Of a stretch of 64,000 nt of DNA, positions 28,177 to 49,141 are shown piece by piece. This DNA comes from a virus. The notes beneath the pieces were generated by a model that saw nothing but the letters and a program-made list of their open reading frames with translations, was not told where the DNA came from and searched no databases. Each line of letters opens with the position of its first letter. The first letter of the stretch is position 1. Made by a program: the position numbers and the translations under genes. The DNA is taken from IMG/VR virus record IMGVR_UViG_3300047440_000809, positions 32,001 through 96,000 of that record. One strand, written 5' to 3'.

Positions 28177-28674
28177 ATGGGAACCGCACAGAATTTCGGT
28201 CAGACGCACAAGAAGCTCTACTTCGACGTGACCTGGGGAACGACGGTGGGCGCGCAGGCGTTCGCCTGTACGGCATTCCGCACCGGCCTGACAGGCGACC
28301 GCTTCGGCGCGCTCATGAAGGCGATGCAGGCGTGCACGGGGGGCACACCGCAGTCGGTCATGGCGGAGAGCGAGTGCTCGGCCTGGTTCCAGTGTCTCCG
28401 CACCGCCACGGTCTCGGGCGGTGTCCACATCGGGTTCAACGTCTACTTCGCGGCTCCCACGGTCGGGAAGATCACCACCGGGCAGCTCCCGGCGACGGGA
28501 CACTTCGCGGCGCTGCCGGCGGATCTCGTCGGGATGGTCGCGGGCCAGAGCGCCGTGTTCGGGACGGTGGGGACCGCGCGGAACTTCTCGGTCGTCGTCG
28601 CGAAGCAGCAGGCGACGACCGCGGCCGTCTCGGGCGTGCTCTACGTCCAGCGGCAGCACTCGATCGAGGTCTGA
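28177..28674 (+). CDS. Beta-rich protein, candidate virion protein
   Basis: Strong RBS GAGGAG; alternating beta-strand pattern. Confidence 0.6.
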   Translation: MGTAQNFGQTHKKLYFDVTWGTTVGAQAFACTAFRTGLTGDRFGALMKAMQACTGGTPQSVMAESECSAWFQCLRTATVSGGVHIGFNVYFAAPTVGKITTGQLPATGHFAALPADLVGMVAGQSAVFGTVGTARNFSVVVAKQQATTAAVSGVLYVQRQHSIEV

Positions 28675-28705
28675 TCCAGCATAAAGCTGGTAGACTCCGG
28701 GGCGG

Positions 28706-30031
28706 ATGACACATCCGATTCTCGAAGTCGTCGACCTCGACAAGCTCCGTCCGTTAGACCTTCCAGCGCCGATCCGCCTCGTCTTTCTGTCCCCAAAGCG
28801 AGGCGGACCGGCGCTGAGTGCTATCCGCGAGGCCCTCTCCAAGAAGGGACAACTGCGGTTCTCCGCGACGGCAACGCGGACATTCGTCGATGTCACGTCC
28901 GAAGAGCCAGAAGCGCCGCTGATCGCCCTGGACACGATCGTGCGCGACGACGCCGCGGGCTTGGAGCGCATGCTGTTCAGCGTGATCCCGCACGTCGACG
29001 AGATCGTGCTTGGCGTGGATGGCCGCAGCGACAAGGAGACGCTGAAGGTCGCCCAGCAGTATGCGGACTGCGTGTACGTGTTCGAGGCCATCGACATCGG
29101 CATGAGGCCCGAAGACTGGGCGCCGACCGCCGCGAACCCCCGGGGGAAGATCGACTTCGCCGCTGCACGGAACATCGGGCGGAGCCGCGTGCAAGCCCCG
29201 TGGGCGCTCGTGCTCGATAGCGACGAGTACCTGATCGCCGAGGACTTCCGGGACGCCGTCAAGAACGCCAGGCCATCGCAGGGGGCGTTCTTCATCAACG
29301 TGGTCATGGCGGACACCGGCGTTCGGCAGTTCGTGAGCCGTGACCACCAGAGGCTCGCGCGGACGGGCTACGTGTGGTCGGGCGCGAAGGACAATCAGCT
29401 AGACTGCAAGGGCAGCGAATCACCCGCAGCGCTTCCGGTAGAGATCCTGCACGACACACGGCTCCGCGCCGACCAGGACCAACGAGACGCGCAGCGCGAG
29501 GCGGCCACGGAGGACTTGGTTGCGCGGGCCGAGCGTGGCGACCTCAACGCGCTCTTTCACCTTGCGAAGCACCGCATCGGCGGCTCGACGGCCATCGAAG
29601 AGGCCGTGCGTCTGACGGAGGATTTTCGGCTGCGTGTGGAGCCGAACTCGCCAATCGCGTTTCAGCGCCAGTGGGTCGCGCTCGGCCTCGCCTTCCGGTT
29701 CTACAACGAGGACAACCACCACGAGGCGAATCGCTGGGCGTGCCGCGTTCTGCTTGATGGTCCGTCGATCGCCGCCTTCTGCCTTCTCGGCGACGTGGCC
29801 GAATGCGAAGGGGACCTCGAACGAGCGTGCAACTGGTACGAGGCGGCGTGCGCCGTGATCGACACGCGCGGCATCACGTGGCCTGGCTTCTCAGAGCTGC
29901 GGTGGGGTCGCCTGGTCGCTCTTCGGTTCGTCCTTGCCGAGGGCAAGAAGCTCGCGCTCAACGCCGCGGGGCCGGACAGTCCTCACGGCGCTTCAACATC
30001 CACAGGCCCGACAGCAGAAACTTCAGGCTGA
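28706..30031 (+). CDS. GT2-like glycosyltransferase with C-terminal TPR
   Basis: VDEIVLGVDGRSD, DFAAARN, LVLDSDE. Confidence 0.8.
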   Translation: MTHPILEVVDLDKLRPLDLPAPIRLVFLSPKRGGPALSAIREALSKKGQLRFSATATRTFVDVTSEEPEAPLIALDTIVRDDAAGLERMLFSVIPHVDEIVLGVDGRSDKETLKVAQQYADCVYVFEAIDIGMRPEDWAPTAANPRGKIDFAAARNIGRSRVQAPWALVLDSDEYLIAEDFRDAVKNARPSQGAFFINVVMADTGVRQFVSRDHQRLARTGYVWSGAKDNQLDCKGSESPAALPVEILHDTRLRADQDQRDAQREAATEDLVARAERGDLNALFHLAKHRIGGSTAIEEAVRLTEDFRLRVEPNSPIAFQRQWVALGLAFRFYNEDNHHEANRWACRVLLDGPSIAAFCLLGDVAECEGDLERACNWYEAACAVIDTRGITWPGFSELRWGRLVALRFVLAEGKKLALNAAGPDSPHGASTSTGPTAETSG

Positions 30032-30187
30032 GCAGGAAGCCGCCCAGCCAGATCGTGTCGACACCGATCACCGCTGCCGCATCGTCGATAGGCGCGTCGT
30101 AGATGTCTACGAAGTCGCTTGCGTAGCCCTTTACGCGTTCCCAGTTCGATGGTGCCGGCGCGGGGGGCGCCACAGGCGTCTGGCCGA

Positions 30188-30946
30188 TCATGCGGCCTTT
30201 TTCTTGTCGCCACCCTTGAGCATCACGACGAGCACGAGACCGAGCGCGACGGCGCCACCGATCATCAGGTACGACTGCTTCACGCGGCCCACGCCGGGGA
30301 GCTTGACGGACTTGCCACCGCCGCGGACCTTGTCAGCCACGTTCTGGACGGCATCGGCGGCCGCGTCCTGTGCCGGTTGCAGGTCGGTCACACCGGGTGG
30401 CGGTCCTTGATCGGCGGCAGCGGCCTGCGCGTCAGCGCCAGGGTCCGCGGGGGCCTCGCCGGACTTGCTGAACCGGGAGAGCAGGTTCTGCATCACCGCC
30501 ATGAAAACGGGGATGGCTGCTGCCACGACCGCCGGGGCGATGCCGAGCTGCACGTTCTCGTAGTAGCCGAGCATCGCCGCGTCCGAGCCGGCGAAGAGTG
30601 CCAAGATCGGCCCGTGCGGGAGCTGATGGTTGAGCGTGTGCTTCGTCCAGGACTTCGCCTCGGCAAGCTCCTGGGCGTTGGGCGTCTTCGACTTGCGCTT
30701 GTCCCACGCGAGCTTCACCGCGCGGCGGTGTTCGAGCCTGAGCACGAGACCTTTAATCGGTCGTGCTGCCTGGTGCGCTAGCCACTGCGTGGGCTTGATG
30801 AGCGTCCACTCGACAGGGAAGTAGGCCGCCTTCCCGACGACCTTCGCGCCCTTCTTGATGCCGTGGCCGGTGGCCTGTACGCCGCTCTTGATCCCTCGCC
30901 CGACAGACCGGATCGAGAACCCGAGCGGCGAGTTCGAGACGATCAC
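30188..30946 (-). CDS. Putative virion membrane protein
   Basis: C-terminal TM + KKK; SPLGF, MLGY, QLGI motifs. Confidence 0.6.
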   Translation of the reverse strand: MIVSNSPLGFSIRSVGRGIKSGVQATGHGIKKGAKVVGKAAYFPVEWTLIKPTQWLAHQAARPIKGLVLRLEHRRAVKLAWDKRKSKTPNAQELAEAKSWTKHTLNHQLPHGPILALFAGSDAAMLGYYENVQLGIAPAVVAAAIPVFMAVMQNLLSRFSKSGEAPADPGADAQAAAADQGPPPGVTDLQPAQDAAADAVQNVADKVRGGGKSVKLPGVGRVKQSYLMIGGAVALGLVLVVMLKGGDKKKAA

Positions 30947-31044
30947 CGGTTACCGCAGCTTGAAGCCGATGAAGATGCTCGCGCCCGCGAGGAGCGCGCC
31001 GAACAGAATCTTGCCGTAGTCGCCTTGCATGGGTCGGAACCTTT

Positions 31045-31644
31045 CTAGTCGCCCGAGGACGACTTCTTCTTTTTCTTGTGCAGGAGGACGTACCCGCCGA
31101 TCCCGGCCGCCGCGACGATGCCGCCGATCAGCAGCCAGTGCTGCTTCTTCGGGCCCGGGACTTCCTGCCCCTCGGAGGCCGCCGACGCGTCCTGCGTGGG
31201 GCCGAGGTCGGCCGCGGGCGAGCCGGGCGCCACGGACGCCTGGGGGATCTGCGAGGGCATCGGGTTCAGGATTGCCTGTTGCTGCGTCAGCTGCGCTTGC
31301 GCCTGCGCGGCCTGCGCTGCCGCTGCCGCCTGCTGCGACGCCATGAGCTGTTGCTGAAGCATCTGGAGACGCGCCGCCGCCCGAGCGTCGTGTCCTGCGC
31401 GCCGCTGGAGGTCGAAGCGCTCGCGATCGTAGGCGCGCTGTGCGTCCCGCGCGCGGTTGATCGCGGCGAAGTCGATGACCGGACGGTAGATGGTGCGGAC
31501 CGGGCCGGGCGTGTAGACCGTCCGCGGCTGCGCGTAGACCGGACGGGGAGGTGCGAAGGCGGGGCGCATGGGAATTGGTGCGCGATAGGCCGGGGGGCGA
31601 TACGCCGAGCGCCAGGGTTGTGGTTGCGGGGTGGCTCCAATCAT
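31045..31644 (-). CDS. Putative virion membrane protein (Pro/Gln-rich)
   Basis: C-terminal TM followed by KKKKK. Confidence 0.6.
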   Translation of the reverse strand: MIGATPQPQPWRSAYRPPAYRAPIPMRPAFAPPRPVYAQPRTVYTPGPVRTIYRPVIDFAAINRARDAQRAYDRERFDLQRRAGHDARAAARLQMLQQQLMASQQAAAAAQAAQAQAQLTQQQAILNPMPSQIPQASVAPGSPAADLGPTQDASAASEGQEVPGPKKQHWLLIGGIVAAAGIGGYVLLHKKKKKSSSGD

Positions 31645-31655
31645 CGGAAGGTCTC

Positions 31656-32003
31656 CTACTTTTTGAGCATGAAGAGGACGACGAGCGCCGCGCCGCCGAT
31701 CAGCGCGAGGGGAAGCAGGTTGCCCTTCTTGACGGGGGCCATCGTCGCGGTGCCGTCGTCGTTCGCGACCTCATCACCCGTGGCGGGCGGTCCGGGCGGC
31801 ATCTGGCCCGGCTGAGGCTGCGTGAACTGCTGGGCGTAATTGGCGTACGAGCCTGCACGGCCGCCGTATGCCTGACCAGCGGCAATCGCAGCCTGCTGCA
31901 CCCTCGGATTCTGGATCGCCTTCGCGATGGCCCGGGTGCCGACGACGTGGGCGTGCACGATCGCGCGGAACGGGTTGAAGCCGAGCGACGAATTGACGAT
32001 CAC
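31656..32003 (-). CDS. Putative virion membrane protein
   Basis: IVNSSLGF N-terminus like 30946; C-terminal TM + KK. Confidence 0.6.
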   Translation of the reverse strand: MIVNSSLGFNPFRAIVHAHVVGTRAIAKAIQNPRVQQAAIAAGQAYGGRAGSYANYAQQFTQPQPGQMPPGPPATGDEVANDDGTATMAPVKKGNLLPLALIGGAALVVLFMLKK

Positions 32004-32087
32004 GAAGACTATCCTACGGGCGACACGGCACACCCGTCAAATCGCCCGATTTGCCTCGGTCGCACTCGCCGTGGCATTCTGTACTTC

Positions 32088-32669
32088 GTGCTCCGCGACG
32101 CAACGGCACCGATGCTTCGTGCTCACCGCGTCGGCACGCTCGATGACCGCGTGAAGCTGCTCACGCGGATGGTGTGGCTAGGCGCGCAGGCGGTAGACCC
32201 CCGGGAACCTCCCGTCGGGGGGCTACGTGATCCGAAGATGCGCGAGATCGGCCTGCGCGCCACGCAGAGCTGTCCCGAGCGGAACGACATGTGCGAACTG
32301 GAAGCGATCTACACGTTCGTGACGATGACCGCGCCGGACGGTCACCCAAACGTGCGCTACACCGGCGACATCGCGCTCAAGGACACGTACCAGACGGCGT
32401 ACCGGACCTTGCAGTATCGCGGCGGCGACTGTGACGACCACGCCGTGCTCAGCGCCGTGCTCGCGATGGAGAACGGCTTCCAGACGCGCTTCCGGATCAC
32501 GTCGAACACCGGCGCGAGCTGGGACCACATCTACTGCATGGCGGGCTACCCGAAGAACGGCCCCACGCGCTGGATCGCGCTCGACACCACGCTCGGCCCG
32601 CGGCGCTTCGCAAAGCAGCCGCCCGAGGCCAAGCATCGCGATTTCAACGTCAGCGAAGTCACACGATGA
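32088..32669 (+). CDS. Transglutaminase-fold cysteine protease
   Basis: Catalytic-triad motifs GDCDD, WDHIY, WIALDTT. Confidence 0.8.
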   Translation: MLRDATAPMLRAHRVGTLDDRVKLLTRMVWLGAQAVDPREPPVGGLRDPKMREIGLRATQSCPERNDMCELEAIYTFVTMTAPDGHPNVRYTGDIALKDTYQTAYRTLQYRGGDCDDHAVLSAVLAMENGFQTRFRITSNTGASWDHIYCMAGYPKNGPTRWIALDTTLGPRRFAKQPPEAKHRDFNVSEVTR

Positions 32670-32878
32670 GTCGTGCCGGTGACACGACAGCGCTTTCGCT
32701 CCCGGACGGTGGCGTCATGGAGATCCCGTTGCCCGGGAGCAAGGGGCGCTTCGCCGTGCGTGCACCTTCGCTGCTCGGGCAAGACGGCAGCTCGCGCCTT
32801 CCGATCGTCATTGGCATCGTGGTCGGCGTCGCTGTCGGTGTCGCGGCAACCGCCTGGTACATGAGCCGGCGGCGCTGA
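32666..32878 (+). CDS. Small membrane protein
   Basis: C-terminal TM + RRR. Confidence 0.6.
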   Translation: MSRAGDTTALSLPDGGVMEIPLPGSKGRFAVRAPSLLGQDGSSRLPIVIGIVVGVAVGVAATAWYMSRRR

Positions 32879-33115
32879 TGCTCGGCGGACGGCCAGCACC
32901 TCCCGCGCGGCCACGGGAAGGGTTCGAGGTGTTCTGGATGCGGTTAGGACGTATCGTCATGAAGCAGTGCCAGCAGAAGGCCCACTGCGACGTCGTCATC
33001 ACGCTCAAGGACGGATCGGTGCAGCTCGTGCGCGTGAACGAGTCGTTCCTACCGACCACGCTGCCCGACGTCTGAGATTTGCCGGGTCGGCGGGCCCGGT
33101 GTTAGCCTGGTATCC

Positions 33116-33976
33116 GTGCTCGCGCAGGACGCACCGACGCAGTCGCTCTTTCCTCATCGCAAGCAGTGCGAGTGGATCGACCAGGGTCATGGGCTGTCCG
33201 CGCGCGTCTGTGACGATGGCGAAGTGCTCATGTGGCACGACGCCGAGACGCGCGAGACCTGGATTCACGGCGAAACCCCGCCGAATAAGTGGCAGGTCTT
33301 TTTCCGCCGTCACCACAACTTCAACGGCTTCGGAGCGACGGAAGCGGCGGTCGGCGTGTGCCCTCCCCGACCGCATATCGCGCCGCGCCCGTCCTCGACC
33401 ATTCAGCGCCTGCAAGCGGCAATCGTCGGGCTCGGGAAACGCGTCGGCGACACCATGCTGCGCATCGCCTCGGACGGGCTCGTCGGTCCCCACACCGTCA
33501 AGGCGACCAATCGCGCGCTCTACATGTACGCCGGGGGCGGCGCAGCGCCGGCGCAGTTCACGACGGGCGCGCTCACGCACGCCCAAGTCGTGGCATTCGC
33601 GCCGCAGCTCACTTCGATCGTGCAGCGTGCGCCCTACCCCGAGTCGCTGCACTCGACCAACGCCGCGACCTATTCTCCACCACCGCCAACCGCGCCGGCC
33701 TTGCCGTCGCAAGGAGCCTCGACGATGCCGTACTACCAGCCGGGACCCGCGTACTACCCGCCTCCGCCACCGCCGGGCTACGGGCCTGCCTACTACGGAC
33801 CCCAGCGAGTCGGGCGTGGTGGGCTCCCCACGGACCAGGCGTCGGTCGACGTGCGTGCCTTCATCCCGGCGCAGTACGAACACGTGCGGATCAATCCGGG
33901 CACGGTCGCGACGGTGATCGGCCTCGTCGTGATCGTGGCGCTGGTGTTGGACCGGAAGAAAAAGAAGGGAGACTGA
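33116..33976 (+). CDS. Membrane-anchored protein with peptidoglycan-binding-like motif
   Basis: IQRLQAAI...DGLVGPHTVKA; Pro/Tyr linker; C-terminal TM + RKKK. Confidence 0.6.
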   Translation: MLAQDAPTQSLFPHRKQCEWIDQGHGLSARVCDDGEVLMWHDAETRETWIHGETPPNKWQVFFRRHHNFNGFGATEAAVGVCPPRPHIAPRPSSTIQRLQAAIVGLGKRVGDTMLRIASDGLVGPHTVKATNRALYMYAGGGAAPAQFTTGALTHAQVVAFAPQLTSIVQRAPYPESLHSTNAATYSPPPPTAPALPSQGASTMPYYQPGPAYYPPPPPPGYGPAYYGPQRVGRGGLPTDQASVDVRAFIPAQYEHVRINPGTVATVIGLVVIVALVLDRKKKKGD

Positions 33977-33978
33977 CC

Positions 33979-34455
33979 ATGAGCCTCGTTGTCGTTCCGA
34001 CCAGCACGGGGTATCCGACGGGGGGCTACAGCCTTCCCGAGCGTGTGTCGTTCGCGATCTCGGATACGGACGGGACTGGCGGGACCATCTACATCAACGG
34101 TCAGGGGGTCAAGAACGGTGACGTCGCGGGCGCGTATGACCTCAAAGACATCTTCGTGTCGGCCGGTCTGCTATTCAGCTCCACCCCGCTGCTCGGACCG
34201 TTTCGTCTTCTGAAGCCCGGATCGAGCCTCCTGGACGTGCAGAACCAGCTGCTCAAGGGGCTCAGCTTCAGCTTCTACGGTGTCACCGCCAACGCGCCCG
34301 CGCCGCTGAACCTGCGCTTCGGAACACTGAACGCGATCGGCGGCCAGCCGGACAGCATCCCCTTCCTGGAGATCATCGCGCCGAACGGCGGCGAGGGATA
34401 CACCGGCGACACCTGGCGCATCGACATCAACCTCCGCCACTCGATCACGAACTAG
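33979..34455 (+). CDS. Beta-rich candidate virion protein
   Basis: ATG just after upstream stop; beta-strand character. Confidence 0.55.
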   Translation: MSLVVVPTSTGYPTGGYSLPERVSFAISDTDGTGGTIYINGQGVKNGDVAGAYDLKDIFVSAGLLFSSTPLLGPFRLLKPGSSLLDVQNQLLKGLSFSFYGVTANAPAPLNLRFGTLNAIGGQPDSIPFLEIIAPNGGEGYTGDTWRIDINLRHSITN

Positions 34456-34461
34456 GCGGCC

Positions 34462-34692
34462 ATGGCCCGGCGGATCAAGGGCAGCTTCTGCGAGCGCGTG
34501 ATGCTCCCCAAGAGCGCATTCGACCGTAAGAGCTTTCGGTGGAAGCGGAGCGGCCGTTCGTGGGTGCTGACGGGCTGTCGACGCAGGCACTTCAAGGGCG
34601 GCCGCTGCGACAACGGGCTGCGTGCACACGTGGTACTCGTGAAGTCGAACGGGTCGTGCCCGATGGGCGGTCGTGCGGTCCGGAAGGGTTGA
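34462..34692 (+). CDS. Small basic Cys-rich protein
   Basis: FDRKSFRW...VLTGC. Confidence 0.55.
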   Translation: MARRIKGSFCERVMLPKSAFDRKSFRWKRSGRSWVLTGCRRRHFKGGRCDNGLRAHVVLVKSNGSCPMGGRAVRKG

Positions 34693-34878
34693 CGTGGATA
34701 AGCCGGATCGCGAAATCACGTGCCGCTGCGGCGGGAGCATCTGCTTCTGGGATCGCGATAGGCGCGTCGCCCATACGGTTCCGCTTTGCGCCTGGTACGA
34801 GGCCGCAGTGGAAACTGCGGGAGGACAGCGCGATCCAGGGGTGATCATCGAGACCGATGCAGGGCGGTACGTGCGAGG

Positions 34879-35130
34879 ATGATCGTCCAGCCGTGCGGGC
34901 TGCCCCGCGAGACCGTCGCGCGCATGCAGTGGGAGGCCGGGCTACCGCCCCACGTGATTCAGGAGACGCTCACCCAGCGCCCCCTCGGTAGCTTCTCCAC
35001 CGACGCCCGCCAGGCGATCACCGTGTCGCCCGACTACTTCGTGCGTTGGTACACCCTCAAGTCAATCGGGCTTGGAGTCGCGGTCGGGATCATCGGGTAC
35101 CTGCTTGGGCGTGCGACGGCGAAGCGCTGA
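34879..35130 (+). CDS. Small membrane protein
   Basis: RPLGSF; C-terminal TM. Confidence 0.55.
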   Translation: MIVQPCGLPRETVARMQWEAGLPPHVIQETLTQRPLGSFSTDARQAITVSPDYFVRWYTLKSIGLGVAVGIIGYLLGRATAKR

Positions 35131-35281
35131 CCGCAGCCACTTCAGCATGTCGATGAGGCCGTTGATCCGGATGATTACCGCCGCCTCGACGAGGCGCACG
35201 TCGGCCAGCTCCTTCTTCAGCGCTTCGACTTCGACCAGCAGCGCTGCGTAGCGCGGGTCTTCCTTCGCGTCGGGCACACGG

Positions 35282-35509
35282 TCAGTGTACTCGGCGCTGT
35301 CGCAACACGAACATGAGCCCACCGACGAGCATGAACACGCCGGCGTTCACGACGGCTGCCGCGGTGTCCTTCGTCGCATCGTGCTCACCGTCCATCGCCT
35401 TGCGCGCGAGTACGCCGGCGATGAAACCCGCGACGCTGCCGATGCTCACGGGAATCATGAAGTCGGAGAGACGCACGGGCTGTGCGTCGGCGAGGAGGTA
35501 GCGACTCAC
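35282..35509 (-). CDS. Small two-TM membrane protein
   Basis: Two Gly-rich hydrophobic helices. Confidence 0.5.
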   Translation of the reverse strand: MSRYLLADAQPVRLSDFMIPVSIGSVAGFIAGVLARKAMDGEHDATKDTAAAVVNAGVFMLVGGLMFVLRQRRVH

Positions 35510-35530
35510 GCGTTCCACTCTAACGCCAAT

Positions 35531-35660
35531 TTGACAGCACCCCAAACTCGCCCGCATACTGGCCTCCACATAGCGGTTCTCTCACCGGAACCGCCACTCT
35601 GAGCGAACCAGAGCAACTGGGCGCTTTCCGTCGGACCTCCCGACAGGAAGCGCCCTTTTT
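35531..35660 (+). promoter_or_regulatory. sigma70-like promoter, structured leader and terminator ahead of the capsid operon
   Basis: TTGACA-18-CATACT; hairpins GCGGTTC/GAACCGC and CTCTG/CAGAG; GGGCGC...GCGCCC-TTTTT 35619-35660. Confidence 0.55.
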
Positions 35661-35685
35661 CTATTTCAACCACAGGAGCCAAAAG

Positions 35686-36336
35686 ATGCTGACCCCATCA
35701 GGACCAGGCGGACGCGGCTCCATCCCTGCGCTCGTGATGCGCACGGGTCTCATCCAGCCGGTGTCGCCCGATAACGCCCGGCGTGATATCAGCGCGCGGC
35801 ACGTCGACAACGTGACGACCTACGTGACGGGGCAGCTGCCCTACACGCCGCCCGGTCTCCCCGCCTCGATGCCGCCGATCGTGCCCGTGCCGGCACCGCC
35901 GTCCAACGCCACGAGCGCCGTCGCGGCCACCGTCGTGGCGACGCCGCCGCGCCCGCTGCCGAACGCACCCGCCGCGCTCCCGGGCCCCGGACACTCGGGG
36001 CTGCACCACTGGCATCACGCCCAACGGCGCATGCACCCGATGGTCGCCGAGATCCAGCGGCTCCACCCGCACGCGAACATCCACGGCTCCTCGGAGCCCG
36101 AGCTGGGTGAGTTCGGCGGCTTCCCGCTCGCGAAGTTCGAGATCGCCGCGAGCGTCCCGGCCATCACCGCCCAGAGCGCGGCGATCAACCTCCGCCTCGC
36201 CGCCCGCGCGCTCTACGAGCGCGGTCTCGGCGCCCTGCCCGCCCAGCTGGTGGGCGGTCCGCTCGCGGCGCTCATGCAGGGCGGCGCCGTCGAGCTGCAT
36301 TTTCAGAATGGGGTCGTCGTGAGGGCGACGCCCTGA
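35686..36336 (+). CDS. Pro-rich putative structural protein
   Basis: AGGAG RBS; first gene of the capsid-region operon. Confidence 0.6.
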   Translation: MLTPSGPGGRGSIPALVMRTGLIQPVSPDNARRDISARHVDNVTTYVTGQLPYTPPGLPASMPPIVPVPAPPSNATSAVAATVVATPPRPLPNAPAALPGPGHSGLHHWHHAQRRMHPMVAEIQRLHPHANIHGSSEPELGEFGGFPLAKFEIAASVPAITAQSAAINLRLAARALYERGLGALPAQLVGGPLAALMQGGAVELHFQNGVVVRATP

Positions 36337-36380
36337 AGCAGTAGCACCCAACCCTCGATGACCCCACCAAGGAGAGACAC

Positions 36381-36488
36381 ATGAAGAGACACTGCCGGTA
36401 CGGCGTGAACAAGCGCACCCACCGCTGCCTGAAGTCGAAGCGGTCCCACCCGCTCTCCGGGCACCGCCGGCGTCGGCGGCGGCGGTAA
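36381..36488 (+). CDS. 35-aa protamine-like peptide (not in ORF track)
   Basis: AAGGAG RBS; MKRHCRYGVNKRTHRCLKSKRSHPLSGHRRRRRRR. Confidence 0.6.
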   Translation: MKRHCRYGVNKRTHRCLKSKRSHPLSGHRRRRRRR

Positions 36489-36545
36489 CGAGGGGGAAGC
36501 GAAACAAAACCGTCAACCCTCACGCAGCAAGAAAGAAGACTTCCA

Positions 36546-41295: not shown

Positions 41296-41308
41296 GAGCC
41301 ACGCGCCC

Positions 41309-41968
41309 GTGATCGACAAGGACGGCCGGCGCCTCATCGCGATTCGCAACGGCCTCGGCCGCACGACGACGGCGCCCGAGGACGCGCAGCTCCTAGCGCG
41401 GATGCAGACGAACCGGCAGGCGCGCGCCGTGCTCGGCGTCGTAGCGCAGTACCTGCGCCGGGGCTACGAGGTCGCGCAGACCGTGCCGTCCTTCATCTCG
41501 CCGATCGACGGGACCAAGCTGGCGGCAGAGGCGATGCGAGGCAATCTCGACTCCGATAACCGCTGGTCACAGAAGGTCTACGCCGCCATTCCGGACGACG
41601 ACGCCCCGATCAGCGACTTGAACCGCAAGAAGGTCACGATCGCCCTGACGCAGGCGCGTGGCACGCTTGCGCTCGTGAGCAGCAGCGCTGAGGACTTGAA
41701 TCGCGGCCTGTTCGGCTCGCTCTCGGATCTGCTCGCGGAGCACTTGTTGCCCTCATGGGCCCAGCCGAACCCGAAGGCCCGCGACCTCGCGCTCAAGATC
41801 GGCATCGGTGTGGCCGTGCTCGTGGGGCTTATCGTCGCCGGCAAGCTCGTACACACCATCGTCCTCGGCCGATCGACGGCGCTCGGTGAGGCCGAGGCCG
41901 CTGTGATGGCGCTCGCGAACGCACAGCGGCGAAAACACCATGCCCGGTCCGTGATCTCCGTGTCGTAG
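41309..41968 (+). CDS. Membrane protein
   Basis: NGLGR motif; TM near C-terminus. Confidence 0.6.
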   Translation: MIDKDGRRLIAIRNGLGRTTTAPEDAQLLARMQTNRQARAVLGVVAQYLRRGYEVAQTVPSFISPIDGTKLAAEAMRGNLDSDNRWSQKVYAAIPDDDAPISDLNRKKVTIALTQARGTLALVSSSAEDLNRGLFGSLSDLLAEHLLPSWAQPNPKARDLALKIGIGVAVLVGLIVAGKLVHTIVLGRSTALGEAEAAVMALANAQRRKHHARSVISVS

Positions 41969-42010
41969 GCGGTTTTGGGCCTCACACGTCCCTCGGTGTA
42001 AGATGCTGGG

Positions 42011-42187
42011 ATGCAGTCTGGCCAGCCGAAGTCGAACGTAGGAACCTGGGCCGCCGTGCTTGGTGGTGTGGCCGTGCTCGGCGGTGTCGCGGCGGCTGCG
42101 CTCGGTGCCGGCGGCAGGAAGCCCGCACCGAAGTTCGGCGGAGCGCGCCGCCCCATCGCGAAGAAGCCGTGCGGCTGTGGCCGGTGA
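42011..42187 (+). CDS. Small membrane protein ending PCGCGR (not in ORF track)
   Basis: TAAGAT -10 six nt upstream; TM then KFGGARR. Confidence 0.5.
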   Translation: MQSGQPKSNVGTWAAVLGGVAVLGGVAAAALGAGGRKPAPKFGGARRPIAKKPCGCGR

Positions 42188-42192
42188 CGTGA

Positions 42193-44277
42193 ATGGGCGA
42201 CGGACCACTGCCGGGCTCCGAGGGTGGCTACGCGGGCCCTACCGTACCGGGTGGCGGTAGCGGGTCACAGGGGGCTCAGGGCACGCAAGGTGCCCAAGGC
42301 GCTCAGGGAAGCGGCGGACAAGGCGCTCAGGGCCCGCAAGGAGCTACCGGCGTCCAAGGGTCGCAGGGCGCGCAAGGATTCCAGGGCGGTGGGTTTCAAG
42401 GGGCGCAGGGCGCCACCGGCGTGCAGGGGTTCCAAGGTGCCCAGGGCTTCCAGGGCGGGGGCTTCCAAGGCGCGCAGGGCTCCACGGGCACGCAAGGTCC
42501 CGGTGGTGGCGCACAGGGCGCGCAGGGTGCGACCGGCACGCAAGGGTTCCAAGGCGCGCAGGGGTTCCAGGGTGGTGGTTTTCAGGGGGCGCAGGGCTTC
42601 CAGGGCGCTGACGGCACGCAGGGGTTCCAAGGCGCGACTGGTGCGGGTGCTCAGGGAGCGCAAGGCGCACAGGGAGCGGACGGCACTGCGGGTGCTCAGG
42701 GAGCACAAGGTGCAGCGGGTGTCGACGGTGCTCAAGGTGCCCAGGGCGCGACGGGAAACACCGGCGCCACCGGCGCGACGGGCGCGCAAGGATTCCAGGG
42801 TGCCACCGGAACGACCGGGACGCAGGGGTTCCAAGGCGCAACTGGGGTAACAGGCGCACAGGGTTCGCAGGGCGCGTCGGGCGCCGACGGTGCACAAGGA
42901 GCACAAGGTGCAACCGGTGTGACGGGAGCCCAGGGTGCACAAGGCTCGACGGGCGTGACCGGTGCGCAAGGAGCCCAAGGGGCTTCCGGTGTCGACGGAG
43001 CGCAGGGTGCACAAGGAGCCACCGGTGTGACCGGCGCTCAAGGAGCCACCGGCACCACTGGCGCTCAAGGAGCGCAAGGCGCTCAAGGCGCAACGGGAGT
43101 GACTGGAGCGCAGGGCGCACAGGGCGCGACCGGCACCGGCACGCAAGGCGCACAAGGTGGAACTGGAGCGCAAGGTGGCACGGGCGCTCAGGGCTTCCAG
43201 GGTGGTTCGGGTGGAGGTGGTGCGAGCACGCTGGGATTCTTCGCGCTCGGCAACACCACGCAGAACACCTCCACGACGCTCGCCGGCAGCGCCATTTCGT
43301 TCAACGTCGCCGGCGGCGTGTCGATGGGCTTCTCGAACTCGTCCATCCAGGTCTCGTCGCCACCTGTGTCGTCGCTGTCGGGCGTGAGCGGGATCGGCTT
43401 CACCACCAACGGCAGCACGATCTCCGTCGGCGGTCCACAGGTTACTGACTTCGAGCCGGAGCCACTGCTCGCCACGACGTCATGGGCGCCGGGCGCGGGG
43501 TCCTGGTACGTCGAGCCCTTCGCGGTACCGAACGCCTTCAGCGGACAGCTCATAAACGCTGTCGCGAGCTTCGCCAACGTGGGCTCTGCCGGGATCTTCG
43601 CACCGGTCGCGTCGTCTCGAATCAACTCGGGAAGCCGATCCGCGAGCTGCATCTTCAACATGTCCGCTGCGGTGTACTCGCGTGGTGCTGGAGGCAATAG
43701 CACCCGGATCGAATCGGTGTGGTCGAACTCATTCTCGTTCGGTGGGGCGTGCTCGCTGTCTGCGGCAACGGCCGGCGCCACCACCATCACGGTCACCTAC
43801 GCCGGCACGCTGTCCTACATCACCCAGATGAACTCGGGGGGCTACACGACCACGTCGTTCTCCGAGTCGGGGTCACGTACAAGCGCCGCCTCCACGATGT
43901 CCACATCGGCCGTCACCAGCGCGCTCACCGACATCTACAACCTGCTCTCGGGCCCGACGCTCGTGCCGATCCCGTTCAACACCACGCTCAACCCCGGCAA
44001 CTACTACTTCGCCTTTGCGTTCAACACCAGCTCGACGTCAGCAGGGACCGACGGGCAGGTTCTCGCCATGTCGGCATTCGTGGGCATCAGCGCCCCGAAT
44101 CAGTTTGCGACGAGAAACCTCGGAAAGTCTGTGAGCACATCGAACCAACCGATCTTCGCGGGAGCGGGCGTGTTCTCTGTGTCATCGGCGTCCCCACCCG
44201 TGTCCATGGCCTTTGTCGATTTGCGCTCGTACGCCGCCGCGAAGGTCTACTTCAACGTGCAGGCTTCTACGATTTGA
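42193..44277 (+). CDS. Collagen-like fibre/spike protein 1
   Basis: About 300 residues of Gly-X-Y ([12 protein letters not shown]), Ser/Thr-rich C-terminal head. Confidence 0.85.
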
Positions 44278-44288
44278 CGGACTGATCG

Positions 44289-45236
44289 GTGTCCTTCGTC
44301 GTAGTTCAGATCGTCCAGGCGAAGGTCGGTGCAACGGCATCGTCGGTGGCGGTGTCGGCTTTCGTGACGAAGGGCAACGTCCTGGTCGCCTACGCGAATG
44401 GCGACAGCGTCGTATCTATCGCCTTCTCCGATTCACTGAACGGCTCCTGGGGAGCCAACTTAGATTCGTTCTCGAATCCACACGAAGGATCGTCCAACTA
44501 CATCCACGCGACTGGCAGACTTGCCGGTACGACGCTCGGAGGAGCGCTTCGACTGACGGCCACGTACGGCGCCTCCACGGGAGCCGGCTCTGTCACGCTC
44601 ATGGAGTTCGCGAACGTCGGAGCGACAGACGGGCACACGGGGCAGGCCCAGCTCAGCTTCGACGGTACTCCGACAGATGCAGTCACGTCTGGCACCGTAT
44701 CGCCCACGAAGTTTCCGTCAGTCGTCATCGCCCCCGCTGCATGCAACCAGGCAACCGAGGGCGGTGGGACCGTATCAAGAGTTGCCGGAACAGGATTCAC
44801 GCAGCAGTTCGACGGCACGGACAACCTGGGTACGCGTGTCGAGACGAAGCGGACGCTCGCCGCGGGCGCTGTGGGGGGCACGTGGACTGCATCGGGCACT
44901 GGGGCGAACAACAACGACTACGACTCATTCGTCATCGTCCTGAACGAGATTCCGACGATCACGGTGCAGCCGGCCACACAGCGCGTCCGTGAAGGACTGA
45001 CTGCGACGTTCAACATCACAGCGACGGCTGCGGCGGGCTCGCTCCACTACCAGTGGAAGCAGAACGGTTCAAACGTCGGCACGGATAGCAGCTCCTACAC
45101 GACGCCTGCCAACACGATCGCCAACAACCTCGACGCGTACACCTGCGTGGTCACCGACGACAACGGTAGCGCAACAAGCCAGACCGCATATCTGTTAGTC
45201 TACGAGGTACCCGGGATTGCCTGGGTGCGTGCATGA
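44289..45236 (+). CDS. Beta-rich surface protein with C-terminal Ig-like domain
   Basis: PTITVQP...LHYQWKQNG...YTCVVTD. Confidence 0.7.
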   Translation: MSFVVVQIVQAKVGATASSVAVSAFVTKGNVLVAYANGDSVVSIAFSDSLNGSWGANLDSFSNPHEGSSNYIHATGRLAGTTLGGALRLTATYGASTGAGSVTLMEFANVGATDGHTGQAQLSFDGTPTDAVTSGTVSPTKFPSVVIAPAACNQATEGGGTVSRVAGTGFTQQFDGTDNLGTRVETKRTLAAGAVGGTWTASGTGANNNDYDSFVIVLNEIPTITVQPATQRVREGLTATFNITATAAAGSLHYQWKQNGSNVGTDSSSYTTPANTIANNLDAYTCVVTDDNGSATSQTAYLLVYEVPGIAWVRA

Positions 45237-45964
45237 AACCCGAACTCGTCGTACAGGACTTAGGCGGTGCGCACAACGCCGACCTCGACGCCACGAGAGC
45301 GCGGCTCATTCGTGGAGGGTCGTGGAAGAACCAGCGCATCGTCGTGATCCTACCGTCGGCCGACCTCATACCGGCGCGCGTCGCGCTCTCGCACTGGAAT
45401 CTCGCGTTCCCGCCGAACAATGGCGTCGTCAGGATTCTCGCGCAGGGGATGGAGGTCGGCGACGCCTACACGCGCGCGGTCGAGGGCGTTCTGGGCGATC
45501 CGAACTTGTCCCAGTGGGAGTACATCCTCACGATCGAGCATGACAACTGCCCGCCACCCGACGGCGTCATCAAGCTCGTCGAGCGCATGGAGGAGCACCC
45601 CGAGCTGTCGTGTGTCGGCGGGCTCTACTTCACGAAGGGGCCGGGCGGCATCGCACAGATTTGGGGCGACGCGTCCGACCCGATGGTCAACTTCAGGCCA
45701 CAGCTACCGGACACGAGCGGTGGGCTGGTCGAGTGCCACGGCACGGGCATGGGCTTCAACCTGTGGCGCCTGTCGATGTTCAAGGACTCGAAGCTGCGAA
45801 GGCCGTGGTTCAAGACGCAGACGAAGGATGGCGTCGCGACGCAAGACCTGTACGCATGGAGCGACTTTAGGAAGAACGGGTACCGCTGCGCCGTCGACTG
45901 CTCCGTCAAGGTCGGCCACTTCGACTTCAAGGGGGACTTCGGGATCCCCGAGTTCATGTGGTAG
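45233..45964 (+). CDS. GT2-like glycosyltransferase
   Basis: YILTIEHD, GGLYF.K, GTGMGF.L, QDLY...GY..AVD.SVKVGH. Confidence 0.65.
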   Translation: MKPELVVQDLGGAHNADLDATRARLIRGGSWKNQRIVVILPSADLIPARVALSHWNLAFPPNNGVVRILAQGMEVGDAYTRAVEGVLGDPNLSQWEYILTIEHDNCPPPDGVIKLVERMEEHPELSCVGGLYFTKGPGGIAQIWGDASDPMVNFRPQLPDTSGGLVECHGTGMGFNLWRLSMFKDSKLRRPWFKTQTKDGVATQDLYAWSDFRKNGYRCAVDCSVKVGHFDFKGDFGIPEFMW

Positions 45965-45980
45965 GAGAGAGGAGAAGCGC

Positions 45981-46538
45981 ATGACCGCCGCGAACGTCGC
46001 ACCCCCGGCCGCTGCACTCGCCAAGCCGCTGAAGCTCGACCTCGGCTGTGGCATCAGGAAGGTGTCGCCCGACTTCACCGGCGTGGACATTCACAAGTTC
46101 GACGGCGTCGACGTGGAGTGTGATCTCGCCAAGCAGTGGCCGTGGGAGGACAACAGCGTCGAGGAGGTGCACTGCTCGCATCTGATCGAGCACCTTGGAC
46201 CCGAGGATCGCATCCACTTCGTCAACGAGCTGTATCGCGTGTTGAAGCCTGGTGGAAAGGCCAACATCGCCTGCCCGGACTACTCCTCGGGGCGTGCCTA
46301 CGGCGACCTCACGCACAAGTGGCCGCCGATCTCGTCCTTCTGGTTCTACTACCTGTCGGCCGACTGGCGTTCGACAAACGCGCCGCACAACGACAAGTAC
46401 ACCTGCAACTTCTCGGTGACCGGCGGCTACATCCTCCGCCAGGATGTCATCGTCCGGAACCAGCAGTACCAGGAGTTCGCGATCAACAACTTCAAGGACG
46501 TCTGCCAGGACATCACGGCCATCTTCACGAAGCTGTAG
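45981..46538 (+). CDS. SAM-dependent methyltransferase (class I)
   Basis: LDLGCG, WPWEDNSV, HLIEHL, LYRVLKPGG. Confidence 0.85.
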   Translation: MTAANVAPPAAALAKPLKLDLGCGIRKVSPDFTGVDIHKFDGVDVECDLAKQWPWEDNSVEEVHCSHLIEHLGPEDRIHFVNELYRVLKPGGKANIACPDYSSGRAYGDLTHKWPPISSFWFYYLSADWRSTNAPHNDKYTCNFSVTGGYILRQDVIVRNQQYQEFAINNFKDVCQDITAIFTKL

Positions 46539-46595
46539 GGGGACGATCTCGGCGGATTTGGGGGCGTCACTCCCCCCGGTGTAAGATGGCACGAC

Positions 46596-47918
46596 ATGGG
46601 TGATGGACCTCTGCCCGGCGCCGAAGGCGGTGGCTTCCTAGGACCCACCGCGGTGCCGAGCGGCGGCGCGCAGGGCACGCAGGGCCCACAGGGCGCGCAA
46701 GGTTCGAGCGGAGGCCCACAGGGGGCTCAGGGCAGGCAAGGCGCACAAGGGTCGCAGGGGGCGCAGGGCGCGCGTGGCGTCCAGGGGTCACAGGGGTCGA
46801 CGGGGGCCGGGACGCAAGGGGCTCAGGGCGACACCGGCGCGCAGGGGGCCCAGGGTGCCTCTGCCGGTAGCACGCTCGCGGCGCTCTACACGTTCGGGCT
46901 CGGCGACGTCCCCACCGTCGACAACCGGCTCGTGGGGGCCATCTCGAACATCTACTTCGACACCGACGGCCGCGTGGTCATCGAGACCAACACCGGCCAC
47001 GAGGGGAACACCGATCCATTCGTGCGGCTCATTCACGACGTCCTCGCCCAGGGCGAGCAGACCTTCAACAACCAGGAGATCCACTACCTCCCTGCCGCGG
47101 GGTTGAACGGGCTCGCGGCCACGACGCCGACGGGGTTCCGCACCGACTACGACCTCGTGGACTCGGGCGGCTCGACGTTCCACTTCGCGCACGAGCGCTA
47201 CGAGAGTGGCAACGTGGTCATGGGCAACCCGTTCACACCTGACCCGTTCCCCGTGCCATCAGGCGCGCCGTACATCGCGCACGAGGTCTACCTGCTTCAG
47301 CCCGACGGCTCGACGGAGACGCTGCACCAGTGGAATGCTCTCGGCACGTACACGCAGAACGCCTACGTGCCGAACGGCGGCGTGCCAGAGACGCTCGCTA
47401 CCATCATGACGCTCATGCACGCGAACGCGGGAGGCGGCGTGCTCCAGGTCGGCAGCGGCGTCGGATGGACCGTCAACTGGACGTCGGGGACGCTGCCCGT
47501 GCTCGGACGGCTGAACGTAATCCTCGACAACAACGGCTTCCTGACGGAGGAGGCCCATTGGCTCTTCCAGGCGCAGCGGTCCGGCGCTGGCGTCGTCGAC
47601 ATCGCACGGATGGACCCCAACCTGGGCATCGACAGCCTCCTCGGGTTGTTCACGTTCAGCAGTGACGGAACCGCCGCGAGCGCTGCCGCAGCCGGAGCCG
47701 CCAAGATGATCTACAACGACACGCGGAAGACGGCACAGCTCAGCGTCGACACCGGTGGCTATGTTGATCTCTTGACCGGATCTGCTGTCGCCAACGGCGG
47801 TGTGACAGTGACTTTCGGCGCCGCCACAGCGCCGGCAGGCAGCAGCGCAACGCCTACTCGGTGGCTCAGCGTGCCGGACGGCGCCGGTGGTACCTTCACA
47901 ATGGCCAGCTTCAGTTGA
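46596..47918 (+). CDS. Collagen-like fibre/spike protein 2
   Basis: N-terminus near-identical to 42193; short GAQ collagen; unrelated C-terminal domain. Confidence 0.8.
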   Translation: MGDGPLPGAEGGGFLGPTAVPSGGAQGTQGPQGAQGSSGGPQGAQGRQGAQGSQGAQGARGVQGSQGSTGAGTQGAQGDTGAQGAQGASAGSTLAALYTFGLGDVPTVDNRLVGAISNIYFDTDGRVVIETNTGHEGNTDPFVRLIHDVLAQGEQTFNNQEIHYLPAAGLNGLAATTPTGFRTDYDLVDSGGSTFHFAHERYESGNVVMGNPFTPDPFPVPSGAPYIAHEVYLLQPDGSTETLHQWNALGTYTQNAYVPNGGVPETLATIMTLMHANAGGGVLQVGSGVGWTVNWTSGTLPVLGRLNVILDNNGFLTEEAHWLFQAQRSGAGVVDIARMDPNLGIDSLLGLFTFSSDGTAASAAAAGAAKMIYNDTRKTAQLSVDTGGYVDLLTGSAVANGGVTVTFGAATAPAGSSATPTRWLSVPDGAGGTFTMASFS

Positions 47919-47932
47919 AAGGACTTGCCTCC

Positions 47933-48259
47933 ATGCTTCCAGGACCGACGAGCGGAATGACCGAACAGCAAGCCGAGGCGACGCTCCGCACGACTGCCGA
48001 GATGACCGAAGACGAGATCGAGTTTCGTGCCACGCACGAGAGTGACGTCGCCGTCATGAGCATGCGCCAGACGCGTGAGGTGCTGTTGCTCAAGGCCAGA
48101 GGCGCCAACAAGGACATCCCTGCGGATACGCCCGGTATGCTGACGGACGAAGAGATCGAGCTGAAGAGAGGGCACACCAAGGACTTCATCGCCCTCCGCC
48201 TGCGGGCCAATCGTGACCTCGCGAAGCTGAAGTTGAGACAGGCAGGTAAGGGCGGCTAG
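47933..48259 (+). CDS. Small protein with repeated [M/L]T[E/D]xxxE motif
   Basis: MTEQQAE / MTEDEIE / LTDEEIE. Confidence 0.5.
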   Translation: MLPGPTSGMTEQQAEATLRTTAEMTEDEIEFRATHESDVAVMSMRQTREVLLLKARGANKDIPADTPGMLTDEEIELKRGHTKDFIALRLRANRDLAKLKLRQAGKGG

Positions 48260-48540
48260 ACGCCTTCGAGCAGCTCGCGGATCGCCGCCTCGGCCAGCGC
48301 ACCCACGTGCCTGCGGATGTGACCGCGGCTCATCACCACCGTGGTGGGCGTGGCCTTGATGTTGAGGGTCGTGGCCAGCTCTTGGACGCGTTGGCCGCCC
48401 CGCGCGAGGTCGTAGACGCCGATGGGAAAGCGCCGGCGGAAGGCGGCGGCTATGCGCTGGAATCGCGGGATGTACTCCGAACAGGCGGGGCATCCCGCCT
48501 GACCGAAGACGAAGACGCCGACGGGAGCCGGGCGGGACAT
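48256..48540 (-). CDS. Thioredoxin-like protein
   Basis: GCPAC active site; IKATPT cis-Pro motif. Confidence 0.75.
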   Translation of the reverse strand: MSRPAPVGVFVFGQAGCPACSEYIPRFQRIAAAFRRRFPIGVYDLARGGQRVQELATTLNIKATPTTVVMSRGHIRRHVGALAEAAIRELLEGV

Positions 48541-48545
48541 GGGGA

Positions 48546-48845
48546 TCAGCGGCGGGGGAAGCAACGATTGCGGAATGTGTCGTCGGCGTGCTGAAGTGCC
48601 TGATCGAACTGCGTCAACGTAGCGCCGCCAGCGCGGCCGGCGCCGCCAGCGTCACGATGCGCCCAGGCGGCGCCGTTGTCCCAGCGTGCTTGCTTCAGGG
48701 CCTCGTACGCAACGGCACAGCGCCCTTCCTGCGCCGCGAGCAGCCCACTCTGTGCGCGCGCGATGCCGCTCTCGACATGACGATCTCTGCGCTGCGAGTG
48801 CGCCGCTGCGCTCGACCCGAGCCCACCGCGCCGGCGCCGCTTCAC
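48546..48845 (-). CDS. Basic protein with RRRRGGLG N-terminus
   Basis: KRRRRGGLGSS. Confidence 0.55.
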   Translation of the reverse strand: MKRRRRGGLGSSAAAHSQRRDRHVESGIARAQSGLLAAQEGRCAVAYEALKQARWDNGAAWAHRDAGGAGRAGGATLTQFDQALQHADDTFRNRCFPRR

Positions 48846-49141
48846 CGCGACATCCCCTTGCACATCTGGAAGTTGCGCAGCGCCGAGTTCACCAGGCGGC
48901 CGCCGAAGTACCAGAGACCTACCGCAGCGGCCGCACCCAGGAAGCCCGTGCCGACGCGCTTCTGCCCGAACTTGTAGATCGAGAAGACGCCTGCCCCGAG
49001 GCCCCCGAGCGCGGCCATGCCTCCCGTGATGACCAGTGGCTTGACCTGCATGGCGCAGAGCAGGTCACCTGTGGACGGGGGCGGGATCGCCGGTCCAACG
49101 TCGCCCGGGTCTGCACCGCTGATCGTGAACACGGTCTCCAT
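48842..49141 (-). CDS. Two-TM membrane protein
   Basis: Two Gly-rich hydrophobic helices. Confidence 0.55.
   Translation of the reverse strand: METVFTISGADPGDVGPAIPPPSTGDLLCAMQVKPLVITGGMAALGGLGAGVFSIYKFGQKRVGTGFLGAAAAVGLWYFGGRLVNSALRNFQMCKGMSR

Follow-up and report, generated by a model that had tools for sequence, protein, structure and literature searches.

A candidate jelly-roll virion module in a large, probably non-tailed virus of bacteria

What kind of particle is built by the uncultivated virus represented by the IMG/VR virus record IMGVR_UViG_3300047440_000809? The question is raised by one locus of this record. Within a stretch of 64,000 nucleotides (bases 32001-96000 of the 104,563-bp record; hereafter the window, to which all coordinates refer unless they are marked as genome positions), the region between 28 and 49 kb encodes two adjacent beta-rich proteins of 262 and 163 amino acids (aa), surrounded by numerous membrane proteins. 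A first-pass annotation, made from the sequence alone, took this region to be the morphogenesis module of a large tailless, membrane-containing virus of an uncharacterized lineage, with the two proteins as paired jelly-roll major capsid proteins (MCPs) and without a visible packaging ATPase. Here, we report a computational analysis of the window, the full record, and its relatives. We consider it probable that the locus is the virion module of a large (~90-120 kb), uncultivated, non-tailed bacterial virus with a jelly-roll, probably membrane-lined shell, and the structural model described below indicates that this shell is most likely made of the 262-aa protein, as a single jelly roll.

The candidate MCP gene (37222-38010, plus strand) adjoins the gene for the 163-aa protein (38133-38624, plus strand). 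Both are genuine genes at the positions originally given: at least 185 homologues, with identities of 59-92%, were found for the 262-aa protein and 110, with identities of 45-85%, for the 163-aa protein. The contigs that encode these homologues reach 150 kb, and none of the homologues has been assigned a function by any source. The 262-aa protein was modelled with AlphaFold2, on a 43-sequence alignment, as an all-beta jelly roll (predicted local distance difference test (pLDDT) 74, predicted template modelling score (pTM) 0.75). The model holds one barrel with insertions and was aligned to single barrels only; a second barrel is unlikely, although residues 160-195 are poorly modelled and PM2 P2 is similar in length to the 262-aa protein. 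The Foldseek matches of the model, all of them weak, are nearly all jelly-roll capsid proteins. The best structural match is SPV1, followed by HCIV-1 VP7 (6.7), HHIV-2 VP9 (6.6), P23-77 VP17 (6.2-6.3), SH1 (6.1), and the single barrels of D13, PBCV-1, and PRD1. Across the candidate proteins, the structures matched best belong to capsid proteins from viruses that have no tail and contain a membrane, namely SPV1, HHIV-2, HCIV-1, PRD1, STIV, and P23-77.

The behavior of the gene points in the same direction as the predicted fold. With a mean identity of 81.5% in the three fully fetched relatives, the 262-aa gene is the most conserved one (59% for the next gene and 66% for the DNA polymerase), and it has the strongest codon bias (G+C content at third codon positions (GC3) 0.94). 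Because top conservation and top codon bias are combined here with a strong terminator directly after the gene, the 262-aa protein behaves like a major capsid protein.

A further line of evidence comes from more distant homologues. When 1.84 billion representatives were searched with a profile, 108 clusters (at 50% identity) of proteins of ~200-270 aa were recovered. A distant subgroup, only 20-25% identical, resides on eight IMG/VR contigs of 30-87 kb, two of which are complete (69.5 kb, and 80.6 kb with terminal repeats). In this sister clade, the capsid-type gene occurs as two or three tandem paralogues, whereas the clade of the window has a single copy of the 262-aa family. Three tandem paralogues of 230-248 aa each are found at L110:7998-10158 and L112:7989-10181, and in both of these loci all three end in the motif G-x-x-K/R-R-P-V; the viruses with three copies measure 70-87 kb. 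In L110 and L112, the paralogues are preceded by tail-anchored membrane proteins similar to those of the window and by a Gly-rich membrane protein. Because multi-protein jelly-roll capsids have tandem paralogous genes, this arrangement supports the shell role independently of the fold search. In the same two contigs, two larger conserved proteins (~400 and 336 aa) come after the paralogues.

In the window, the 262-aa gene is the last of a predicted operon. A sigma-70-like promoter (35531-35560, plus strand; TTGACA-18-CATACT, 10 of 12 positions matching, by consensus match only) is followed, all on the plus strand, by genes for a 216-aa Pro-rich protein (35686-36336; 50-61% identity in relatives, no Pfam or PHROG match), a 35-aa protamine-like peptide (36381-36488), a 171-aa Gly-rich membrane protein (36546-37061; 62-69% identity in near relatives, and the equivalent of the one that precedes the sister-clade capsid genes), and the 262-aa protein. 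Directly 3' of the capsid gene lies the strongest intrinsic terminator of the region (38032-38067, plus strand), with a 16-pair stem that includes 10 GC pairs and a T-rich tail. The 35-aa peptide, which contains two Cys and finishes in seven consecutive Arg, is a candidate DNA-condensing core peptide. Similar peptides (29-41 aa, 41-53% Lys plus Arg, two Cys each) occupy the same position in eight near-clade loci, most of them with the shared N-terminal motif MxK(R)HCR(F/Y)GV...CLK, and this conserved composition leads us to infer that the peptide condenses DNA.

The 163-aa protein appears to be of a different kind. Its gene could also be read from a longer GTG start at 38043, and this codon falls within the terminator stem, which makes 38133 the better start. 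The AlphaFold2 model (pLDDT 87) consists of a helix at residues 5-29 followed by an eight-strand barrel, and its top match, which is the sole one to cover part of the N-terminal helix as well, is the penton protein VP9. In HCIV-1, VP9 consists of one barrel, preceded by an N-terminal helix of ~34 residues that rests on the membrane, and disorder affects the initial 40 residues of the penton protein of HHIV-2 (PMC6414509); we take the structure 6h82_b to be the latter protein, from its modelled range of 39-173. Since the helix-plus-barrel organization agrees with the published description of VP9, the 163-aa protein resembles a vertex protein more than a second MCP, and we regard it as a candidate penton.

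The pairing suggested by the first-pass annotation therefore has to be weighed against this assignment. Under that suggestion, both proteins would be MCPs that form heterodimers and pseudo-hexameric capsomers, as do P23-77 VP16/VP17 or HCIV-1 VP7/VP4. The adjacency of the genes and the jelly roll predicted for both products agree with it, and this part of the original claim stands; the P23-77-style pair itself was not established, and we consider it unlikely. The top match of the 163-aa protein is a penton protein; the families are unrelated in hhalign comparisons, which found no relation among the 262-, 163-, 159-, and 153-aa families of the module (262 versus 163, probability 0.3%); and mean conservation is 81% for the 262-aa gene as opposed to 56% for the 163-aa gene. 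Because the strong terminator lies between the two genes, those that follow it, the 163-aa gene included, are expected to be read at a lower level. Furthermore, the extra capsid-like genes of the sister clade are paralogues of the 262-aa family and not of the 163-aa family, and the 163-aa profile found no match in that clade. A complex prediction with both proteins returned a score of 0.00, which speaks neither for nor against binding.

The G+C content of the window is ~66%, and since high G+C yields many spurious open reading frames (ORFs), genes were called by GC3, with some calls mended through conservation in relatives. By this conservation, 38638-39117 and 40837-41295 (both plus strand) are genuine genes and the minus-strand ORFs overlapping them are spurious; the latter gene replaces the spurious minus-strand call at 40950-41129. 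The record of the window (G000) is classed as linear and, at 104.5 kb, bears out the expectation of a genome of at least 64 kb. Seven relatives in IMG/VR measure 89-121 kb. Two of them, G002 (94,503 bp) and G003 (89,081 bp), are closed by an exact 127-bp direct repeat, which is the length left by the assembler's largest k-mer on circular assemblies; hence both are probably complete circles, and their label of 'direct terminal repeats' probably denotes circular assembly and not real genome ends. Another relative, G005, is estimated to be 99% complete.

The first-pass annotation had noted that no FtsK/HerA gene with a Walker A motif lies near the capsid genes. This is accurate for the module; such a gene does occur on the contig outside the window, and it is not conserved, so that the substance of the claim holds. 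The gene (genome 27664-29727, minus strand; 600 aa from the likely start, 27664-29466) lies ~2.3-4.3 kb before the window and ~41 kb upstream of the capsid gene. It encodes a HerA-family ATPase domain (Pfam DUF87, E 2.5e-7, over the cut-off; Walker A GGGKS, Walker B VDEAH), followed by a coiled coil and two weak winged-helix matches. Its profile matches solved HerA proteins with E values of 4e-12 to 3e-5, and TrwB and VirB4 weakly, and the protein also matches phrog_2666, annotated as 'head and packaging' (E 4e-11, and 1.6e-17 for the syntenic homologue in G002).

These matches, together with close homologues on contigs that carry the capsid gene (for example, those of 107,832, 99,953, and 84,839 bp), could be taken to mean that the ATPase pumps DNA into a preformed membrane-lined jelly-roll shell, as in viruses of the Sphaerolipoviridae or PRD1 type, with the winged helices recognizing viral DNA. 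We consider this quite improbable in view of the distribution of the gene. A profile hidden Markov model (HMM) search detected it only in G000 and G002, and not in the circular G003 or the 99% complete G005, and DUF87 was found in none of the eight sister-clade records. It lies in a variable 15-kb region, beside a 2,191-aa collagen-like gene, and this region is missing from G003. The HerA-type family comprises more than 4,000 proteins, far above the capsid family, and 156 IMG/VR stretches encode a relative; of five records with such a relative, none has the capsid gene and three encode Terminase_6N, so that the ATPase would not be the packaging enzyme of those terminase-bearing phages. Patchy in the near clade, absent from the sister clade, and present in phages that have a terminase, the HerA-family ATPase was rejected as a lineage-wide motor and is probably not a packaging motor. 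Searches for Pox_A32 and FtsK_SpoIIIE yielded nothing over the cut-off in 12 records. Because none of the searches for HerA, DUF87, Pox_A32, FtsK, and terminase gave a lineage-wide result, the lineage appears to be without a recognizable conserved packaging enzyme. As a separate observation, some viral contigs that encode HerA relatives belong to terminase-bearing phages of 68-204 kb; the role of the HerA family in phages is apparently unstudied.

The virion genes of tailed phages were searched for on the full record and in relatives. Scans with Pfam and PHROG, which covered essentially all ORFs of at least 200 aa of the full record bar one (225 aa, genome 976-1653) and the ORFs unique to G002, detected no gene for a terminase, a portal, an HK97 capsid, a tape measure, a tube, or a baseplate. 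In G000 and four near-complete relatives of the near clade (G001, G002, G003, and G005), no match reached the cut-off in six-frame searches for Terminase_6N, TerL_ATPase, Phage_capsid, or Phage_portal; these scans gave matches in control genomes and used one Pfam family each for capsid and portal, so that a very divergent form could escape them. As a control, Terminase_6N detected a terminase in three of five unrelated phages, and it had no match in the eight sister-clade records, the two complete ones among them. A weak TerL match in G005 turned out to be a superfamily 2 (SF2) helicase. PHROG matches annotated as 'tail fiber' or 'tail protein' are confined to collagen repeats and an immunoglobulin-like (Ig) domain. 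The absence of terminase, portal, and tail genes noted at first pass thus extends beyond the window: no HK97-fold capsid protein, portal, or terminase came to light elsewhere on the contig, and a jelly roll is indeed predicted. Judged by its gene content, the virus does not appear to be a tailed phage on any of the criteria examined.

Several points weigh against the reading of the locus as a non-tailed virion module. All of the evidence is computational, and the contig of the window is only partly complete (estimated at 86%). Confidence in the 262-aa model is moderate, and it is lowest in the segment mentioned above. At E<=1e-3, Foldseek found no match in the PDB for the 262- and 163-aa models or in the BFVD for the 262-aa model; the 262-aa family, with narrow and broad profiles, and the 163-aa family matched none of the PDB sequences; and 33 members of the broad 262-aa alignment matched nothing meaningful in Pfam. 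Neither protein has a Pfam or PHROG match, and tblastn of the 262-aa protein against GenBank phage records found none. The weaker structural matches include the cement proteins of Pam1 and KHP40, and jelly rolls also serve as cement and receptor-binding proteins in tailed phages. Related clusters bear the automatic taxon label Uroviricota. Finally, we know of no precedent for the enclosure of 100 kb of DNA without a motor.

It is very unlikely that the virus is a member of Caudoviricetes with head, portal, terminase, and tail genes diverged past HMM detection, in which decoration, cementing, or receptor binding would be the task of the jelly rolls and the collagens would act as tail fibers: the tailed-phage-typical replication module, the PHROG 'tail' and Uroviricota labels, and the two cement matches agree with such a phage, but the readily detected large terminase was seen in none of five near-clade records, of which two are at least 99% complete, nor, with Terminase_6N, in any of eight of the sister clade (two complete), the 'tail fiber' matches fall only on collagen repeats and the Ig domain, with no tape measure, tube, or baseplate found, and a decoration protein is not expected to be the most conserved gene or tandem-triplicated.

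If the locus is a non-tailed virion module, which we favor, its relationship to the known tailless viruses can be considered. In the predicted models, the module architecture is closest to that of SPV1 (Portogloboviridae), with which it shares, as predicted here from genes and models, one single jelly-roll capsid protein and a jelly-roll penton in the absence of a packaging ATPase, which SPV1 itself also lacks. SPV1 has a hyperthermophilic archaeal (Sulfolobales) host and a genome of ~20 kb. In contrast, the virus described here has bacterial lysis genes (a lytic transglycosylase (SLT) and GH25), 90-120 kb of DNA, a large replication module, and a set of sugar-nucleotide and glycosyltransferase genes, and shows no sequence similarity to SPV1. 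With the Helvetiavirae/Singelaviria (Sphaerolipoviridae, Simuloviridae, and Matshushitaviridae: SH1, HHIV-2, HCIV-1, P23-77, and IN93), it has in common a predicted penton whose helix would face the membrane, a wealth of membrane proteins, and jelly-roll genes that lie side by side. Those viruses have genomes of 16-31 kb, two paralogous MCPs, and a conserved FtsK/HerA ATPase in the morphogenesis module, whereas here the capsid family has one member, the ATPase is not conserved, the genome is 3-6 times larger, and sequence similarity is absent. PRD1 (Tectiviridae), PM2 (Corticoviridae), and STIV (Turriviridae) combine a double jelly-roll capsid protein with an A32-type ATPase and a genome below 20 kb; the model obtained here has one barrel, and Pox_A32 and FtsK fall short of the cut-off. 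Thus, the tailless prokaryotic double-stranded DNA viruses compared have genomes of 16-31 kb when the capsid is single jelly-roll and below 20 kb when it is double jelly-roll (PMC8812541; ICTV profiles). The virus is a member of neither the SPV1 group nor the sphaerolipovirus group. We found no description of such a lineage in the full-text literature and no sequence link to solved capsid proteins, in agreement with the uncharacterized status assigned to it at first pass.

A bolder proposal, which we put forward tentatively and consider doubtful as a whole, is that of a deep undescribed bacterial lineage with 90-120 kb of protamine-like-condensed DNA in a membrane-lined, single jelly-roll, motor-free shell. 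Such a lineage would be a counterpart of the portogloboviruses at five times the genome size, and the three tandem capsid paralogues of its sister clade would represent an independent route from homo- to hetero-hexameric capsomers.

The remaining genes of the module include ~14 membrane proteins within 29958-49141, most of which are anchored at the C-terminus and have consecutive Lys or Arg residues after the anchor; the dozen or so proteins with transmembrane (TM) segments and basic tails reported at first pass are therefore real. On the minus strand, these are a 77-aa protein with one predicted TM segment at residue 38 and a basic C-terminus (29958-30191), a 252-aa tail-anchored protein ending in KKK and conserved in G002 and G003 (30188-30946), a Pro-rich 199-aa protein ending in KKKKK (31045-31644) and a 125-aa protein (31656-32033), both tail-anchored by TM prediction, a 95-aa protein for which two TM segments are predicted and which is shared by G002, G003, and G005 (35282-35569), and a 99-aa protein conserved in G002 and G003 (48842-49141). 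The plus strand encodes tail-anchored proteins of 70 aa, ending in RRR (32666-32878; TM prediction and relatives), and of 286 aa, ending in KKKK (33116-33976; conserved in all relatives, no Pfam or PHROG match), as well as a small C-terminally anchored protein (34786-35130; 57-59% identity in G002 and G003). Downstream of the capsid genes, also on the plus strand, are a 161-aa protein that has a TM segment at its N-terminus as well as a basic stretch (39698-40183; 53-58% identity in G002 and G003, where it is differently placed), a 152-aa protein with a C-terminal hydrophobic anchor (40837-41295; 40-58% identity in relatives), a 219-aa membrane protein (41309-41968; TM prediction and relatives), and a 58-aa membrane protein with a basic tail (42011-42187). 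This abundance of membrane proteins is suggestive of an internal lipid membrane; as to the membrane and the lack of a tail alike, gene content is what leads us to infer them.

Enzymes and fibers complete the picture. The SLT is encoded on the plus strand at 39053-39688 (Pfam SLT, E 1.1e-10), occurs in all relatives, and carries an N-terminal TM segment, so that its membrane anchorage was correctly recognized, as were the collagen-like proteins, a 694-aa fiber with a beta-rich C-terminal domain (42193-44277, plus strand; Pfam Collagen, E 1.1e-29) and a second one of 440 aa (46596-47918, plus strand). Between them lies the gene for a 315-aa protein with an Ig-like domain (44289-45236, plus strand; weak matches to Pfam Ig_3 and Ig_2, and phrog_3995 at E 1.6e-14 on the same residues). 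A transglutaminase-like (papain-fold) protein is annotated at 31551-32669 on the plus strand; its residues 243-345 match Pfam Transglut_core with an E value of 3.6e-6, which passes the cut-off. Only its C-terminal ~200 aa are conserved, at 44-63% identity in all relatives; the real start is probably near 32050, and the N-terminal half, which overlaps a minus-strand membrane-protein gene, is probably not translated. This protein could be a maturation protease or a cross-linking enzyme. The other plus-strand genes encode a 165-aa beta-rich protein that may be a virion protein (28177-28674; GC3 0.91, 31-39% identity in G002 and G003, no Pfam match), a 441-aa GT2-like glycosyltransferase (28706-30031; Pfam Glycos_transf_2, E 2.9e-4, just short of the cut-off; 45-52% identity in relatives), and two conserved proteins without Pfam or PHROG matches, of 159 aa (38638-39117; 37-63% identity in six relatives) and 153 aa (40223-40684; GC3 0.92). 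Inspection of the sequence shows a CPAC motif in a 102-aa protein, which is possibly thioredoxin-like (48256-48564, minus strand; 45-52% identity in G002, G003, and G005).

These components can be combined into a tentative scheme of virion assembly. The 262-aa shell gene would be transcribed from its own promoter, together with those of the Pro-rich protein, the 35-aa Arg-rich peptide, and the Gly-rich membrane protein, and the terminator would close the operon. The 163-aa protein would most likely fill the fivefold vertices, with its helix towards the membrane. The tail-anchored proteins with their Lys/Arg tails may give rise to an internal lipid vesicle, the inner face of which would be positive towards the DNA; the SLT may serve the passage through the cell wall; and the collagen-like fibers would be spikes, probably glycosylated by viral glycosyltransferases. 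Basic peptides would condense the genome, which would become enclosed as the particle assembles, in the way proposed for SPV1, instead of being pumped into a shell made beforehand. Condensation and enclosure appear to be the most likely route because no packaging ATPase is conserved across the lineage, and this model agrees with the presence of the Arg-rich peptide and of basic tails on the membrane proteins.

The rest of the genome bears on the host and on replication. The replication module resembles that of tailed phages and includes PolA, Dda-like and SNF2 helicases, Sak4, and a primase; no tRNA gene was found in the window. A GH25 endolysin (muramidase) is encoded at 62856-63677, and the presence of this enzyme and the SLT indicates a bacterial host with peptidoglycan. 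Among 185,579 species genomes, there was a single match, a 107.8-kb contig comprising a whole virus and binned with a metagenome-assembled genome (MAG) of Vicinamibacterales, which is a weak hint at an Acidobacteriota host. A tyrosine recombinase (59477-60196; Pfam Phage_integrase, E 1e-24; GC3 0.94; ~41% identity in the three fully fetched relatives) may serve in the resolution of genome multimers or in integration; among the sister-clade records, one carries the classification of provirus.

The 2,191-aa collagen-like protein encoded before the window (genome 20248-26823; Pfam Collagen, E 1.9e-55) is very large for a phage fiber, and its gene adjoins that for a 709-aa glycosyltransferase/methyltransferase fusion. 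A scattered nucleotide-sugar pathway (23456-24355, 24649-27985, and 52358-53668, as well as L004:5002-6734) comprises a GFO/IDH/MocA oxidoreductase, a UDP-sugar dehydrogenase, a DegT aminotransferase, and a hexapeptide acyltransferase, with at least six glycosyltransferases besides, and suggests heavy glycosylation of virion fibers or of the host surface.

Two other sets of conserved genes in the window were considered for structural roles. A 733-aa protein (7395-9596) shows 30-35% identity in the three fully fetched relatives, in G002 over a short stretch only, and has no family match; a charged coiled coil of some length is accompanied by stretches rich in Gln and Pro, a patch of basic residues, and a tail of acidic Gly/Glu character. 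Coiled-coil and low-complexity in character and lacking a P-loop, it was rejected as a portal, terminase, or tape measure protein; it could be a scaffold or core protein. The other set, a trio at 17808-21932, encodes a MoxR-type AAA+ ATPase (408 aa; ~60% identical across four near relatives), a DUF2201 metallopeptidase/VWA protein (460 aa), and a DUF6744 protein (326 aa). Their very strong codon bias (GC3 of 0.89-0.94) points to high expression. The trio is present in four of five near-clade records (not in G004), is missing from the sister clade, and is common in tailed phages; clusters of DUF6744 carry mostly tailed-phage labels. DUF6744 was rejected as a hidden capsid protein, being part of this near-clade-only set, and the trio possibly functions in host takeover or counter-defense.

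If the locus is what we propose, it represents a lineage several times larger than any described tailless phage. Large phage genomes are assumed to need the combination of an HK97 capsid, a portal, and a terminase, and a jelly-roll lineage of 70-120 kb would break this size rule. The lineage is widespread in soil and freshwater, and the databases would be misfiling all of it as tailed phages. It would also place viruses of bacteria close to the root proposed for the single jelly-roll viruses and would pose the problem of how 100 kb of DNA is enclosed without a recognizable motor. The single-copy and triplicated capsid genes of the two sister clades offer a natural experiment on the evolution of multi-protein capsomers.

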